Shown piece after piece: positions 2,310 to 8,649 of a stretch of DNA of 27,187 nucleotides. The position numbers and the translations under genes are program-made. The notes below the pieces were generated by a model. That model saw only the letters and a program-made list of their open reading frames with translations. It searched no databases and had not been told where the DNA came from. The first letter of the stretch is position 1, and the number at the start of each line of letters is the position of its first letter. The stretch comes from Myxococcota bacterium. Lineage in GTDB: Bacteria; Myxococcota_A; UBA9160; PR03. The stretch lies in the NCBI GenBank assembly GCA_041611735.1, contig JBFIML010000052.1, positions 1-27,187 of the forward strand, written 5' to 3'.

Positions 2310-2339
2310 ATGCTAGGTGGCAGACCGGAGCCTTGTCAA
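2310..2339 (-). promoter_or_regulatory. Putative sigma70 promoter of the histone gene
   Basis: On the - strand: TTGACA (2339-2334), 18 nt, TAGCAT (2315-2310), ending 30 nt upstream of the ATG. The -35 box overlaps the larC stop codon. Confidence 0.7.
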
Positions 2340-3550
2340 CGCGGAGTCTGCCGCCGGGCAGCCTCCTCGGCCAGCCGCACGATCTCCCGCAGCGGGATTC
2401 CCGCGCGACGCGCCAGCCGCTTGCAGTCGTCGTACTCGGCGGAGGCGCTGACCCCGCCCTGCGGGTCGCGGACGAGCTTGACCCGGACCGGCCCGTGGCG
2501 GGTCGCGACCCGGCGCACCTGGCGGTGGAGCACCAGGCGGTCGCACTCCTGGACCCGGACCCCGAGCGTGGTGGACTCGGCGAACAGCACGCGCGCCACG
2601 GCCAGCCGCTCCGACGGGCGCGCCAGCACGCGCAGGCCGAAGCCCGGCCGGCTCTTCTTCATCTGCAGGTGCTGGAGCGTCACGTCCAGGGCGCCGGCTT
2701 CGAACAGGCGCTCCATCAGGTACTCGAAGTGCTCCGGCACGAGGTCGTCGAGGTTCGTCTCCAGGCACACGACCCGGTCCGCCGAGAGGCCGTCGGCACG
2801 ACCGAGCACGGCGCGCAGCACGTTCGGGAGCACGCCGGGGCGGTCGTCGCCGGCGCCGTGACCCACCGCCTCCACCCGCAGCGCCGGCAGCGGGCGGAAC
2901 TCGTCCACCAGCGTGCGCGCCAGGGCCGCCCCGGTGGGCGTCACGGTCTCCCAGGCCACGTGGGCCGGCACCACCGGGACGCCGCGCAGGAGCTCGAGGG
3001 TGGCGGGGGCCGGGAGCGGCAGCGTGCCGTGCTCGGTCTCCACCTGACCGTGGCCCAGGGCCAGGGGCGAGCAGGTCAGACGGCGCACGCCGAGCCGACG
3101 CAGGCCCGCCACGCAGCCCACCACGTCCACCAGCGCGTCCACGGCCCCGACCTCGTGGAAGTGCACGCGCTCCACGCGGACCCCGTGCACGCGCGCCTCC
3201 GCCCGGGCCAGCCGCTCGAAGACGGCCAGGGCGCCGGCGCGCACCTCGTCGGCCAGGCGCGCACGCTGGAGCAGGCGGCGGATCTCGGCGAAGCTGCGGC
3301 CGTGCGAGTCGGGATGGCGAGGCACCTCCACCTGCACGTAGCGCGCCGCCAGCGGGCCGCGCCGCACCCGGCCCACGCGCAGGCGATGGCGCAGGCGGAG
3401 GCCCGCCAGGTCGGCCTGGAGCTCGCGCCGCGGCAGTCCGAGATCCAGCAGCGCGCCGAGCAGCATGTTGCCGGCGATGCCCGAGAAGGCGTCGAGATGC
3501 AGCACGCGCCCGGCCGCGCCGCTAGAGGCGGTTGATGAGCGTCGCGACAT
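2336..3550 (-). CDS. larC: Nickel-pincer cofactor biosynthesis protein LarC (nickel insertase)
   Basis: Motifs LHLDAFSGIAGNMLLGALLDLG, VHFHEVGAVDALVD, PAPATLELL, TPTGAA, ETNLDD, MKKSRPG, ESTTLGVR, AEYDDC. Confidence 0.95.
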   Translation of the reverse strand: MSRRSSTASSGAAGRVLHLDAFSGIAGNMLLGALLDLGLPRRELQADLAGLRLRHRLRVGRVRRGPLAARYVQVEVPRHPDSHGRSFAEIRRLLQRARLADEVRAGALAVFERLARAEARVHGVRVERVHFHEVGAVDALVDVVGCVAGLRRLGVRRLTCSPLALGHGQVETEHGTLPLPAPATLELLRGVPVVPAHVAWETVTPTGAALARTLVDEFRPLPALRVEAVGHGAGDDRPGVLPNVLRAVLGRADGLSADRVVCLETNLDDLVPEHFEYLMERLFEAGALDVTLQHLQMKKSRPGFGLRVLARPSERLAVARVLFAESTTLGVRVQECDRLVLHRQVRRVATRHGPVRVKLVRDPQGGVSASAEYDDCKRLARRAGIPLREIVRLAEEAARRQTPR

Positions 3551-4271
3551 GGGCCGCCCCGAAACCGTTGTCGATGTTCACCACGGTCACGTTCGAGGCG
3601 CAGCTCGTGAGCATGCCGAGCAGGGCGGCGACGCCCCCGAAGGAGGCGCCGTAGCCGACGCTCGTGGGGACGGCGATCACCGGCCGGGCCACCAGCCCGC
3701 CCACCACCGAGGGCAGCGCCCCCTCCATGCCGGCCACCACGATCAGCACGCGGGCGGAGCGCAGCAGCTCGTTCGAGTGGAGCAGCCGGTGCAGACCCGC
3801 CACGCCCACGTCCTGGAGCAGCTCGACCTTGTTGCCGAAGCGGCGCGCCACCCCCACCGCCTCGGCGGCCACCGGCAGGTCCGAGGTGCCCGCCGAGACC
3901 ACCACGATCAAGCCCTTGCCGAGGGTGGGCACCTCGCTGGGCCCGTACCAGAGCAGGCGGCCGGCGGGGTCGTAGTCGCCCTCGGGCAGGCGGGCCAGCA
4001 CGTCCCGGGCCAGGTCGGCCGGCACGCGGGTCACCAGCACGGGCAGGCCCGCCCCGCGCTGGGCCACGATCCCCTCGGCGATCTGCTCGGGAGTCTTGCC
4101 GGGCCCGAAGACCACCTCGGGCAGGCCCTGGCGCAGGGCGCGGTGGGTGTCGATGCGCGCGGCGGAGGTCTCGACGAAGGGCAGGCGCGCCAGCCGCTCG
4201 AGCGCCTCGTCGAGGTCGAGCTGGCCGCGTCGCACTTCGTCGAGCAGCTCGCGCAGGCGTTCCCGGTCCAC
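3522..4271 (-). CDS. larB: Nickel-pincer cofactor biosynthesis protein LarB (PurE-like carboxylase)
   Basis: Motifs [80 protein letters not shown] precedes the GTG. Confidence 0.96.
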
Positions 4272-4295: not shown

Positions 4296-4823
4296 TCAGA
4301 CCGACGGCTCGGGGTCGGGCGTCCAGACCAGGAGCCCCTGCAGCGTCCCGGCCGCGTCCACCAGCGGCGTCTCGATGCGCAGGGGCCCGGGCCGCCGCGT
4401 GGCGCAGCGCTCGACCTGCGGCACCGACGGCACCACGCGGGCCGCCAGGGTGTCCGCCAGGGCGGAGAGGGCGTGGGAGGCCAGGATGTTGCCGGCCTCG
4501 CCGAGAGCCGACTCCACCTGCTCCGGCGCCGACTCCGACTCCGGGGTCCCCAGCAGGCGCGCGAGCAGCGACGCCCGGGCGCTGTCCGGGAAGAGCACCG
4601 CCAGGCTGCCGCCGAAGCCGCCTTCCACCCGGAACAGCACCCCGGTGGCGTCGGGCTCCGGCGCAGCGGGCTCCGGGGCCCGGGTCGGAGCCTCGCTCAG
4701 ACGCGGCACCTGCATGCGGATCGTCCGGCCCAGCAGCACCGCCAGGGCGCCGGCCGCATGGCCTGCCCCGATGTTGGCCAGCTCCGCCCAGCGGTCGAGT
4801 TCTCGGGGAGAGTGGTGGCTCAT
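4296..4823 (-). CDS. cheC: CheC-family phosphatase (DifG-like)
   Basis: Two ExxN motifs ([14 protein letters not shown] and [14 protein letters not shown]); ATGA overlap with the cheA stop. Confidence 0.88.
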
Positions 4824-5956
4824 GGCAGCTGGCCGAGCTCCACCACGAAGACCGGCCGGCCATCGCCGAGCAGCGTCAGGCCGGCGATGCCGCGCAGGCG
4901 GGCCAGCAGCGCCGGGAGCGGCTTCACGTAGATCTCCTGCTGGCCGGCCAGGCGCTCCACGCGCAGCGCCACCCGCTGGCCGCGGATCTCGGCCAGCAGC
5001 AGCGGGCAGGCAGGCCCGCTGGCCGGCACCTCGCCCCAGCCGAGACGCTCGGCCAGGTCGAGCACCAGCACCGGCTCGCCGTCCAGGGAGACGAAGCTCT
5101 CCCCCCCGCTGCGCTCGATGGCGTCGGGTCCCACCTCCACGATGCGCTCCACCTTGGCGATGGGAACCGCCACCAGCTCCTGGCCGATCCCGACCAGCAG
5201 CACGCTCTGCACCGCAGCGGAGATCGGCACCACGAGCGTGGTGGTGGTTCCCTCGCCCCGGCGCGACACCAGCTCCACCTGGCCGCCGAGCGCCTCGATG
5301 GTGGCCCGCACCGCGTCCATGCCCACGCCGCGGCCCGAGATCTCCGAGACCCCCTCTGCAGTGGAGAGGCCGGGGCGGAACACGAAGGCCGCCACCTCGT
5401 CGGGCGGCAGGTCCTCGGCCAGGTCCGGGTGGAGGAACTTCTCCGCCACGGCGCGCGCGCGCACCGCCTCCACGTCGATGCCGGCGCCGTCGTCGCGCAC
5501 GGCGATGCGGATCACCTCGCGGTCCCGCATGGCCGCGATCTCGAGCCGGCCCGCCTCGGGCTTGCCCGCGGCGCGGCGGCGGTCCGGGGTCTCGACGCCG
5601 TGATCGACCGCGTTGCGCACGAGGTGCACCAGGGGGTCGTAGAGGCGGTCGAGGATGGCGCGGTCCAGCTCGAGCTCGACGCCGCGCAGCTCCACCTGCA
5701 CGCGCTTGCCGCCGCGCAGGGCCACGTCGCGGGCCACGCGGGGGAGGTTCTCCATCACGCGCAACAGGCGCGTGGTGCGCAGGCCCAGGGCGCGGCGCTG
5801 CAGGTCGCCCACCACCCGGTCCATGCGGTCGAAGCCGCGCGTGAGCCGCGCCGAGCGGCCCGTGGCGTCGGCGGCGGTGCGAAGCTGGCTGGTGGCCAGC
5901 ATCACCTCGCCCACCGCCGAGAGGAAGCGGTCGATGGACTCGGTGCGCACGCGCAC
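4820..5956 (-). CDS. cheA: CheA C-terminal part (P3 dimerisation, HATPase, CheW-like P5); the frame is open back to the A9 run at 6019-6027
   Basis: [73 protein letters not shown]. No Hpt domain in this frame. Confidence 0.93.
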
Positions 5957-6000
5957 CGAGGGCGGCGGAGGCGGCGCCGCCGGTCTGGCGGGAGCCGCCC

Positions 6001-6417
6001 CTACCGGAGCGTCGGGGCTTTTTTTTTCGGTTCTCGGGCGGGGGCGGGCGCCACCGCCAGGGCGCGCACGAGCGCCGGGTCGGCGGACGGCGGGGCTCCG
6101 CTGGCGCGCACGGCGCCGATCAGGCGCTCGAGCTCCTCCAGAGCGCGGAACCAGAGCGGCAGCTCCTCGGGCTCCCCGATCCCGCCGGTGCTGCGGCAGC
6201 GGCCGATGCGGTCCTCGAGCCGGTGGGCCACCTCGGTGATCGGGTCGTACTCCAGGGAGCCGGCCATGCCCTTGATGGAGTGGGCCATGCGGAACAGCAG
6301 CTCGAGCGGCTCGGCGGCGCTCGGATCCTTCTCGAGCGCGAGCAGCGCCCGGCTCATCTCGGCCAGGTGCTCGCCCGCCTCTTCGAGGAACAGGCTGCGG
6401 TACTTGGCGACGTCCAA
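6001..6417 (-). CDS. cheA: CheA N-terminal Hpt (P1) domain as a separate 138-aa ORF
   Basis: [18 protein letters not shown]...[15 protein letters not shown]...AHRLED. TTG start. It ends [13 protein letters not shown] just after the A9 run. Confidence 0.9.
6019..6027 (-). other. A9 homopolymer at the cheA frame junction (candidate slippery site)
   Basis: The - strand reads CCG AAA AAA AAA GCC CCG ACG CTC CGG TAG. A -1 shift (or one extra A) gives [31 protein letters not shown], continuous with the kinase frame. Confidence 0.75.
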
Positions 6418-6421
6418 CGGC

Positions 6422-6823
6422 CTAGGACCGCCCCGTCACGGCCTTGCGCAGGGTGACCAGCACGCGGTCGGGCTTGAAGGGCTTCACGATGAAGTCGCAG
6501 GCCCCCGCCTCGAGCGCCTCGCTCACCAGGGACTCCTGGCCCAGGGCCGAGACCATGACCACGCGCGCCTGGGGATCCGTGGCGAGGATCTTGCGCACCG
6601 AGTCGAGACCCGAGCAGCGGGGCATCACGATGTCCATGGTGACCAGGTCCGGCTTCAGGTTCTGGAACGCCTCGACCGCCTCGACGCCGTCGGTGGCCTC
6701 GCCGATCACCTGGAAGCCTTCGGGCTCGATGATCTCCCGGATCATCTCGCGCATGAAGCGGGCGTCGTCCGCAACCAGCACACGAATCGCCGTCGTCATC
6801 GTCATCGTGTTCGTCATGGTCAT
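6422..6823 (-). CDS. cheY: CheY-like single-domain response regulator (DifD-like)
   Basis: [36 protein letters not shown]; the catalytic residues are intact. There are four in-frame ATGs (6823, 6817, 6805, 6799). Confidence 0.93.
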
Positions 6824-6829
6824 CTTGGG

Positions 6830-7282
6830 CTATTGCTCCTGTGCCTCGATGGCGCGAAGCGCCTCGCGGATCACGCGCTCCGCGTCGAGGATCGCCACGA
6901 TGCGGCCCTCCACCTGGCGCCGCTCCACCACGAGGCCGGGGCCGGCCGCCTCCCGGGCGTGGCCGGCCACGATCCCGAGCACCCGGTCCACCGGGAGCCC
7001 GATCCGCTCGCTGCGGTGCTCGCCGCCCCCGATCACCAGCACGTGGGCCGGCTCTGCGAAGCCCGGCGTGGGCTCCTCGAACAGCACGCCGCGCGCCACC
7101 ACCGGCAGCGCGTCGCCGTGCAGGTTCATGACCGACGCCACCCGGCGCGGCAGCATGGGAATGCCGGCGGGCGGCCCGGGCTCGCTCACCTCGATGACCT
7201 GGGCGATGGGCAGGGCGTAGGCGGCGCTGCCCACCTCGAAGAGCACCAGGCGGTCCGTGGTCGCGTCGGCGGGAAAGCTCAC
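6830..7282 (-). CDS. cheW: CheW coupling protein (DifC-like)
   Basis: [44 protein letters not shown]; located between the MCP and CheY genes. Confidence 0.88.
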
Positions 7283-8649
7283 GCGCTCGGGCCCTCCTCC
7301 GGCGCCGCATCGGTGCGGAAGCGGCGCAACACGCCGCGCATCTTCTCGGCCAGGGCGGTGAGCGCCTGGGCGGAGGACACCGTCTCGGCCATGCCCTCGA
7401 ACTGCTGGCGGGCGGCCTCGGAGCCGTCGCGGGCGGCGGCGGCGTTGTCCGAGGCGAGCCGCGCGATCTCGTCCATGGAGGCCACCATGCGCTCGGCGTC
7501 GCGGGCCTGGGTGTCGGCGTCCTGGAAGATCTCCTCGGCCCGGGCCGAGGCCTCCCCCACCGCGGCGCGGATCTGCTCGAGGGAGTGGGCGATCGTGTTG
7601 ACGTCGTCGCGGCCCTCCCCGATCACCTGGCTCGACTCGCGCATCTCGTCGGCCACGTCGCGGGTGTCGGACTGGATCTGGTGGACCAGCTTCGAGATCT
7701 CCTCGGCGCTGCGGCCGGCGCTCTCGGCGAGCTTGCGGATCTCCTCGGCCACCACCGAGAAGCCGCGGCCGGCCTCGCCGGCCCGGGCCGCCTCGATGGA
7801 GGCGTTGAGCGAGAGCAGATTGGTGCGCTGGGCGACGCTGTGGATGATCTCGGTGATCTGGTGCACGTAGCGCGTCTTGGTCTCGAGCTCGAAGACCTTG
7901 TGGCCGGCCTGCTCGACGCGCTCGAACACGGTGCGCATCTTCTCGATGGCCAGGCGCGAGACGTCCACGCCCGAGTTGGCCTTCTGGTTCGCCTCCGCGG
8001 CGAAGCCGAAGGCCTCGCGGGCGCGGGAAGCGGTGACCTCCACCGCCTGGGCGATGTCGCGGATCAGCCCGTGGGTGCCCTGGAGCAGGTCCTGCTGGTG
8101 GGCGACGCCCTTGGCGACGCGCTCCACCGTGGCGGAGATCTCCTCGTTGCCACCCCGGGCACCCTCGGCGTGGCGCGAGAGGTCGCGGGCCGCCGCCGAG
8201 ACGCGATCGGCGGTGGTCTGCACGTGCTCCACGAGCTCGCGCAGGCTCGTCAACATGGCCTGTACGCTGCGCCCGAGGTCGTCGATCTCGTCGTGCAGGC
8301 GGTGGGGCGGGCCGCCGAAGCGGACGGTCAGGTCGCCCTGGCTGATGCGGTCCGTGGCGCTCTGCAGGGTGCGGAACTTCCAGGCCAGCTCCCGGGACAG
8401 GAAGAAGCCCAGGCCTCCGCCCACGCCCAGGGCCACGAAGGGCCAGACCCAGCCGGGGGCGGGCAGGCCGATGCGGGTCGCCACGGCCGGCAGGCCGAGC
8501 ACGATGGCCGCCACCAGCAGCGCCCCGAGGACGAAGCGATGGGAGAGGGAGAGCCGCACGCCCTTGGGTATCGGCCCGTGGAAGGGCGGCCTTGACGCGT
8601 CAGAAGTGGCGCCAGCCTCCGGCGTCCCGACGGGCGGCGTCGGCTCCAC
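7279..8649 (-). CDS. Methyl-accepting chemotaxis protein with two TM helices, almost no periplasmic domain and a HAMP domain (DifA-like)
   Basis: Hairpin-tip motif [49 protein letters not shown]...[13 protein letters not shown]; two adjacent hydrophobic helices. Start uncertain (8649 or 8559). Confidence 0.93.

Follow-up and report, generated by a model that had tools for sequence, protein, structure and literature searches.

A cheA gene divided between two reading frames at a conserved A-run, a probable programmed recoding site in uncultured Myxococcota

The divided cheA locus

A cheA gene of a Myxococcota bacterium (GTDB lineage Bacteria; Myxococcota_A; UBA9160; PR03; assembly GCA_041611735.1) is divided between two overlapping reading frames at a run of nine adenines (A9). 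The stretch of DNA analysed, hereafter the window, has 27,187 nucleotides (nt) and is the whole of contig JBFIML010000052.1 (C52) in a draft genome of 4,086,371 bases, 118 contigs, and 72% G+C. A first-pass annotation made from the letters alone had proposed that a programmed frameshift or slippage at this run yields a free Hpt protein plus a full-length CheA, and the comparative evidence gathered here supports that proposal: the break is very probably a site of programmed recoding, by the ribosome or by RNA polymerase. The gene lies on the minus strand of the window and is organized as follows.

6001..6417, minus strand: 0-frame open reading frame (ORF) encoding Hpt (CheA P1), 138 amino acids (aa), TTG start, with a 5-aa tail, APTLR, after the run (ORF, Pfam, alignment)
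6019..6027, minus strand: A9 run (T9 on the plus strand), read AAA AAA AAA in the 0 frame (sequence)
6025..6019, minus strand: in-phase slippery heptamer A_AAA_AAA (sequence)
6001..6003, minus strand: 0-frame stop TAG, 15 nt past the run (sequence)
5957..6019, minus strand: -1-frame linker of 21 codons ([21 protein letters not shown]) that joins the lysine run to P3 and has no start codon
5963..6006, minus strand: predicted 17-bp hairpin that starts 12 nt past the run, of uncertain role (60-nt fold)
4820..5956, minus strand: -1-frame ORF encoding the CheA kinase core, P3 (H-kinase_dim), P4 (HATPase_c), and P5 (CheW-like), 378 aa from GTG (Pfam, alignment)

The Hpt ORF ends in ...CCG AAA AAA AAA GCC CCG ACG CTC CGG TAG. 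The -1 frame is already open well ahead of the A9 run and continues stop-free into the kinase ORF; the joined product would have 532 aa and, from the run onward, would read [34 protein letters not shown]... The phospho-accepting His46 of Hpt pairs with His48 of E. coli CheA in the alignment, and residues 2-376 of the kinase core align with E. coli P3-P4-P5, with the N, G1, F, and G2 motifs kept. The full set of CheA domains (P1, P3, P4, P5) is complete only when both frames are joined. Neither ORF has a Pfam match to P2, the CheY-binding domain; only the 21-aa linker stands between the run and P3, and the in-frame orthologues described below carry a low-complexity linker of 55-85 aa in place of P2. 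ORF searches, Pfam, and the E. coli alignments thus bear out the initial description of this locus, which comprised the end of the Hpt ORF, the open -1 frame, a P2-less CheA of about 532 aa, and catalytic motifs preserved on both sides of the break.

The run is out of character with the genome that contains it. Only six A/T runs of at least 7 nt are present, the one in cheA being the longest, and base composition alone predicts an estimated ~0.15 such runs per genome. Across 1278 long ORFs, AAA accounts for 296 of 10,406 lysine codons (2.8%) and is never found as an AAA-AAA pair, against 279 AAG-AAG pairs, so the three consecutive AAA codons are indeed as anomalous as first remarked. Both tRNA-Lys(UUU) and tRNA-Lys(CUU) are encoded. 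The other A/T runs of this length fall in AT-rich or intergenic segments or close to the beginning of an ORF that Pfam does not recognize, and none of them is a supported second recoding site. An A7 on contig C21 of the source genome, G000 (C21:19510-19516; L147:2011-2017), reads CCC AAA CAA AAA AAG CGG and falls ~17 codons into a 507-aa ORF without a Pfam match; overlapping open frames are present there, with nothing to indicate recoding. Logan contigs from two separate sequencing runs span the cheA A9 (T9) and are identical, although both belong to one study, which may be the source study, and contigs can hide minor variants of run length. A further sequencing run, X5, from a different study, yields no contig across 5970-6150, and a look-up of RNA runs listed none containing this DNA.

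Conservation and selection of the divided layout

Orthologous loci were collected from 41 related genomes, 301 genomes sampled over the phylum, a scan of genome contigs, a scan of metagenome contigs, and extra stretches taken by coordinate. Orthologues of at least 55% identity are confined to the order of the window, a sister family of the same class follows at 43-47%, and identity of the kinase core across the clade, which consists of uncultured Myxococcota, ranges from 43 to 82%. The genome set contains 75 loci with both halves, 72 of them unique. The kinase lies in the -1 frame and is preceded by an A-run in 60 of these 72, with run lengths of A7 (32 loci), A8 (5), A9 (11), A10 (11), and A11 (1). 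Locus L035 becomes the 61st when its first kinase segment is used, an assembly gap having shifted the remainder. The rest comprises eight loci fused in frame without a run, two fused with a run (L113, A10; L146, A7, from an error-prone assembly), and one, L123, with the kinase in the +1 frame. Metagenome contigs contribute another 16 loci in which both halves are present (L151 has the same sequence as L018): nine have the -1 layout and a run, three the +1 layout and a run (L152, L161, L164), two are fused with a run (L154, L157), and two are fused without one. Twelve further metagenome loci of 41-46% identity, in frame and without a run, may be other paralogues and were left out of the counts. 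The total is 88 unique loci, distributed as 70 in the -1 layout with a run, ten fused without a run, four fused with a run, and four +1/-2. The comparison with orthologues that had been suggested alongside the first-pass annotation therefore finds the A-run and the -1 break conserved in 70 of 88 loci. Two loci in the collection, L145 (G010:C31) and L026 (G031:C78), are identical over the first 600 nt of the kinase though their genomes represent different species, and bin overlap or contamination is possible there.

In all 70 of the -1 loci, the run sits where the -1 frame is already open, ahead of the Hpt stop, and presents A_AAA_AAA in the X_XXY_YYZ phase. The 32 A7 runs of the genome set all read xxA AAA AAA, and in longer runs the extra adenines are all on the 5' side; the frame relation is identical for A7, A8, A9, A10, and A11 and is independent of run length modulo 3. 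Genomes assembled into one to three contigs (G017, G027, G151, G217) show the same break. Distant cheA loci from other phyla (33-40% identity) served as a control: of 61, 59 are in frame, the exceptions being L094 and L060, the latter of which resembles a homopolymer miscall. L060 and L048, cheA genes of Acidobacteriota / Terriglobia unrelated to that of the window, differ at GAA AAG AAA AAA A, where one record has an out-of-frame A7 and the other an in-frame A8; this difference looks like a miscall in one assembly and not like a recoding site.

In eight of eight close pairs, the ratio of nonsynonymous to synonymous substitution rates (dN/dS) lies in the range 0.06-0.27 for the core of the kinase and 0.17-0.52 for Hpt, which indicates that both halves are under purifying selection. 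The history of the layout was followed on a maximum-likelihood tree (quick IQ-TREE search) of 69 kinase cores that left out L030 (truncated), L035 (gapped), and L146 (error-prone). The eight fused, run-less forms appear as scattered singletons within shifted clades, and well-supported branches force at least seven changes. This scatter suggests that the shifted layout is old, older than the split between the order and the sister family, and points to repeated loss of the A-run site through fusion; such repeated loss in turn argues that the joined protein is the working kinase. Linkers of in-frame sister genes match the -1 frame of the shifted loci best in six of six pairs, with weak scores in a sequence of low complexity. 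Periodicity of G+C at the third codon position was also tried as a guide to the translated frame of the linker and proved uninformative, the Pro/Ala-rich segment having G+C fractions of.81,.76, and.78 at positions one, two, and three.

Mechanism of joining and rival explanations

We propose that ribosomes reading the A-run in the 0 frame would meet the stop five codons on and release the free 138-aa Hpt (P1). A fraction would slip back by one base on A_AAA_AAA, two tRNA-Lys(UUU) re-pairing from AAA AAA to AAA AAA, and would then read AGC, the Pro/Ala linker, and P3-P4-P5 to produce the 532-aa P2-less CheA. Fusion would be the sole route to the kinase core, which would never be free of P1. This ribosomal -1 slip would be the core mechanism of the clade, and we lean, with some reserve, toward it as the main route. 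In the window, where the run would have grown to A9, RNA polymerase probably also adds an extra A to some transcripts, which would lead to the same protein. The sequences show the anatomy of the site, its conservation, and selection on both halves; that a slip takes place, how efficient it is, and whether the free Hpt has a role are what we infer from them. The free domain could act on behalf of the kinase as a substrate in trans, a shuttle, or a sink, or could be no more than a side product of a device for keeping kinase levels low; the main effect of the site may be to limit the kinase to a fraction of what the upstream genes yield. We count in favor of a ribosomal slip that the last codon of the heptamer is AAA and not AAG despite the presence of tRNA-Lys(CUU) in the genome, AAG being expected to be shifty only where this tRNA is absent.

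Elements that could stimulate ribosomal slippage are associated with the shorter runs. A stable downstream structure, one that ranks within the lowest 20% of windows taken across its gene, is found in 32 of 36 A7/A8 loci compared with five of 23 A9-A11 loci, and the mean minimum free energy downstream is -24.3 kcal/mol for A7, -22.9 for A8, and -18.9 for A9-A11 (Mann-Whitney p 0.00025, with kin that are not independent). Upstream pairing with the anti-Shine-Dalgarno (anti-SD) sequence follows the same division, at -5.6 for A7, -6.9 for A8, and -3.3 for A9-A11 against a background of -3.75. L002, a sister of the window locus (82% identity), combines an A8 with a GGAG motif. Two sub-clades have a consensus helix with compensatory changes in three of nine and four of six pairs, respectively. 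RNAalifold gave no consensus over all 41 A7/A8 cassettes, in which the helices occupy different registers, and only the sub-clades yielded one; the spacer measured from the outermost pair of the minimum-free-energy fold was too noisy for use. The GCCCC...GGGGC stem that the first-pass annotation placed directly after the run is predicted in a 45-nt fold and to that extent stands, but it is unconvincing as a stimulator, having no spacer and being displaced by the longer hairpin in a 60-nt fold. No Rfam family matches positions 5700-6300. An antisense intrinsic terminator, formed by the hairpin and T9 on the plus strand, was considered and set aside: a terminator scan did not flag it, and relatives have a spacer between helix and run.

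Several observations weaken the case for a ribosomal -1 slip or favor slippage by polymerase. Both stimulators are missing from most loci with A9-A11, SD-like motifs occurring in only four of 23. The consensus helices of the sub-clades begin 10-13 nt past the heptamer, beyond the classical stimulator spacing of 5-9 nt and the 6 nt of the E. coli dnaX helix, and the SD-like motifs of relatives lie only 4-9 nt upstream (counted from codon listings), off the dnaX optimum. Run length can be set against hairpin or SD-like motif in only four independent pairs (sign-test p at least 0.25). The window itself has no SD-like motif, its anti-SD duplex of -3.0 kcal/mol ranking at the 61st percentile of the gene, and its hairpin, 12 nt past the run, is unexceptional (-33.7 kcal/mol in the 60-nt fold, z -1.56, 18 of 200 shuffles equally stable). 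The conserved phase of the run is partly inherited, as a change needs two compensating indels. Moreover, a single-query search detected no extra stand-alone Hpt gene in five in-frame, run-less genomes, the other matches falling inside long cheA frames (five shifted genomes were searched with the Hpt query for comparison), so the free Hpt may be dispensable. Finally, a -1 ribosomal slip cannot serve the lineage of L123, L152, and L161.

In this lineage, represented by one metagenome-assembled genome (MAG; L123) and two metagenome contigs (L152, L161), the Hpt frame reads CAA AAA AAG GCC/CAC TGA and the kinase occupies the +1 (= -2) frame. The three loci come from independent assemblies, with mutual dS of 0.39-1.35 and dN/dS of 0.14-0.25 in both halves, and this divergence under purifying selection marks the +1/-2 layout as maintained. 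GGAGGG lies 5 nt upstream of the A7 run in this lineage, and, seen from the kinase frame, the run keeps the register (AAA)(AAA)(A..) of all other loci. A -2 or +1 ribosomal slip, or the loss of one A in the RNA, could join the halves. L113 (A10) and L154 (A9) present another arrangement: they are fused, keep the run, and have a -1 frame that stops within ~5 codons, so that a slip would give Hpt alone, in a reversed layout like that of E. coli dnaX. L157 (A10) is fused without a nearby -1 stop, and L164 (A9) looks like the A10 type minus one A. Some of L113, L154, L157, and L164 may be homopolymer miscalls.

The contrast between A7 with a hairpin and A9-A11 without one suggests that RNA-polymerase slippage may add to the ribosomal slip or replace it. 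That recoding occurs mainly by polymerase, one A being added (or two removed) in a share of the mRNAs that are then translated normally, is a possibility we regard with some doubt. It gains from the length of the window run, since A9 is the length at which dnaX of Thermus thermophilus slips at transcription for about half of its products (Baranov 2005, PMC1088944). The 23 of 60 genome-set loci with A9-A11, mostly devoid of stable structure or SD-like motifs, fit it as well; L123, L152, L161, and L164 could be served by the loss of one A in RNA and not by a -1 ribosomal slip; and the fused DNA variants that are one A longer (L154 A9, L157 A10, L113 A10) are the DNA equivalent of a slipped transcript. 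However, the run is no longer than A7 or A8 in 37 of 60 loci, which is on the short side for E. coli RNA polymerase to slip efficiently; these loci carry conserved compensated helices, which stimulate ribosomes rather than polymerase, and their runs are never found in another phase though substitutions could shift them. A broader and more speculative view, to which we give little credence, is that one family keeps the output of free P1 plus full CheA while switching decoding machineries and layouts, with the P1:kinase ratio tuned and perhaps regulated. Such a family would use a ribosomal -1 slip and hairpin at A7, polymerase slip at A9-A11, a -2/+1 event in one lineage, and the reversed layout elsewhere; the ratio would be set, for example, through the rare tRNA-Lys(UUU), and could yield the ultrasensitivity predicted by models of split kinases (PMC3591291).

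The explanations that dispense with recoding fare worse. Hpt and the kinase core could be two separate proteins, the latter translated from an internal start codon or by ribosomes that reinitiate past the Hpt stop, and acting in trans as in Rhodobacter sphaeroides, where CheA4 phosphorylates the His domain of CheA3 (PMC6829392); the A-run would then be an unstructured landing site for ribosomes or have no role. The GTG at the start of P3, shared by the window and about half of its relatives, is what this improbable arrangement would use, yet 17 of 60 loci lack any ATG, GTG, or TTG from the run to 12 nt past the start of P3, in another 17 start codons occur solely within the conserved VRV motif, and just five offer a candidate farther upstream that has an SD-like motif. 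No SD-like motif precedes the GTG at 5956 in the window, so both the locus and the survey agree with the initial assessment that this codon, placed in a conserved motif, is an unlikely start. No stop interrupts the -1 frame between run and P3 in any of the 60 loci, where shuffled linkers would be expected to leave 43.5 open, and a conserved PPPS/T motif precedes VRV upstream of the candidate starts; together with the -1-frame affinity of the in-frame sister linkers, weakly scored as it is, these features make an independent start of the kinase core unlikely. Separate proteins would also leave unexplained the in-phase heptamer, the fixed -1 relation, and the absence of the run from most fused forms. 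A phase-variable switch, in which slippage during replication would alternate A9 with A10 and so activate or silence the pathway, had been offered as an alternative reading of the site and is now very unlikely. Long A runs are hypermutable, four run-bearing loci are fused (L113, L146, L154, L157), and L164 resembles an A10 type minus one A; nevertheless, 70 of 78 run-bearing loci share the same -1, or 'off', state at any run length, 32 of 60 in the genome set have only A7, a kinase switched off in nearly every species would not keep its dN/dS of 0.06-0.27, and the contigs of the two samples give the same T9 with no variant, minor ones possibly being hidden. Least credible of all is that an assembly or sequencing error conceals a true A10 or that the gene has lately decayed into a pseudogene. 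Homopolymers do invite errors, the draft genome is in 118 contigs, and L060 against L048 looks like just such a miscall, but the same break recurs in 70 loci from many assemblies, including those of one to three contigs; the contigs of two sequencing runs agree on T9; even an A10 would be a gross anomaly for this genome; and the purifying selection on both halves speaks against a pseudogene.

Operon context and relation to known systems

The divided cheA belongs to a chemosensory operon with the gene order MCP-CheW-CheY-CheA-CheC, whose other members, all on the minus strand, are listed below.

7279..8649, minus strand: methyl-accepting chemotaxis protein (MCP; HAMP and MCPsignal domains), first gene of the operon (Pfam)
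6830..7282, minus strand: CheW (Pfam)
6422..6823, minus strand: CheY-like single-domain response regulator (Pfam; NCBIfam)
4296..4823, minus strand: CheC/CheX-type phosphatase, last gene of the operon (Pfam; NCBIfam)

Neither cheB nor cheR is present in the window. We call the operon Dif-like on the presumption that its gene order resembles that of the Dif-type chemosensory cluster of Myxococcus. Directly downstream on the same strand, at 2336-4271, are genes for LarC (nickel insertion protein) and a LarB-like member of the AIR-carboxylase family; the 463-aa product of 646-2037, on the plus strand, has a receiver domain and matches PilZ weakly (E 0.0009, below the Pfam cut-off). The source genome also has a second, canonical cheA (contig C9:14063-16018 of G000), in which P1 and kinase share one 706-aa frame, with 39% identity in the core.

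If the proposed recoding is correct, a single gene sets the ratio of free phosphotransfer domain to kinase, which would be a new wiring of a chemosensory pathway, and the clade would offer a natural series in which ribosomal and polymerase slippage can be compared on one gene. There is also a practical consequence: such cheA genes are likely annotated as two ORFs or as pseudogenes in Myxococcota MAGs, and pathway reconstructions would wrongly score the kinase as broken. New to this study are the finding that short runs tend to come with a hairpin and long ones without, the recognition of a lineage that maintains the +1/-2 layout and of fused loci with the reversed layout, the tree on which fusion recurs, and the failure to detect a compensating Hpt gene in the five genomes searched.

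To our knowledge, conserved programmed frameshifts in non-mobile bacterial genes are few (dnaX, prfB, copA, and Mg-chelatase), and the literature searched describes none in a kinase of chemotaxis or of two-component signalling. No report of cheA recoding came up in full-text searches, whose reach did not extend to the cluster lists of Sharma 2011 and of the Antonov 2013 supplement, and a cheA cluster may be contained in those lists. The first 300,000 characters of a 2016 review (PMC5009743) and the main text of Antonov 2013 (PMC3711429) make no mention of cheA, chemotaxis, or a histidine kinase, and PMC4066793 makes none of cheA.

Among the known systems is dnaX, the gene for tau and gamma, which is recoded by a ribosomal -1 frameshift in E. 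coli and by transcriptional slippage at an A9 in Thermus thermophilus (Baranov 2005, PMC1088944). Like cheA, dnaX is a cellular gene with an A-run at a domain boundary; it gives two products that share their N-terminus, as is proposed for cheA, and the occurrence in cheA of A7 with a hairpin alongside A9-A11 without one suggests the same pair of alternatives. The two genes differ in that the dnaX slip gives the shorter product, whereas the cheA slip would be needed for the longer one (except at L113 and L154); cheA moreover encodes a signalling kinase, has the heptamer A_AAA_AAA where dnaX has A_AAA_AAG, and carries its helices farther downstream. In mxiE of Shigella flexneri, a non-templated base at a homopolymer within overlapping ORFs is required for the longer, functional fusion (PMC1088944). 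The overlapping ORFs and the homopolymer are shared with cheA, but the mxiE run consists of U and its product is a transcription activator. The Mg-chelatase cluster is a non-mobile cellular family with a conserved -1 break at A7-A11, as in cheA, although in a different protein family; its A-run cassettes directed 10% (A7), 40% (A9), and 63% (A11) frameshifting in E. coli (Antonov et al. 2013, PMC3711429), from which a rough expectation of ~40% follows for an A9. In OrfA-OrfAB transposase frameshifting of the IS3 and IS1 families, two overlapping ORFs are fused at A_AAA_AAA or A_AAA_AAG, often with a downstream stem-loop (PMC4066793). Those sites belong to mobile elements, in contrast to the cheA site, which lies in a vertically inherited chromosomal signalling gene with a conserved operon context.

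Chemotaxis kinases provide precedents for the products and not for the mechanism. E. coli makes two CheA forms from one gene. These forms, CheA-L and CheA-S, and the CheA3/CheA4 pair of R. sphaeroides, in which P1 and the core reside on separate polypeptides that work in trans (PMC6829392, PMC3591291), use an internal start or separate genes rather than recoding. The closest analogue in logic is copA/CopA(Z), with the difference that the copA frameshift gives the short product and the cheA slip would give the long one. Nor is the slippery site of copA known to be an A-run. In E. coli, copA supplies a free N-terminal domain and the full-length protein from one gene by programmed ribosomal frameshifting (PMC6747150).

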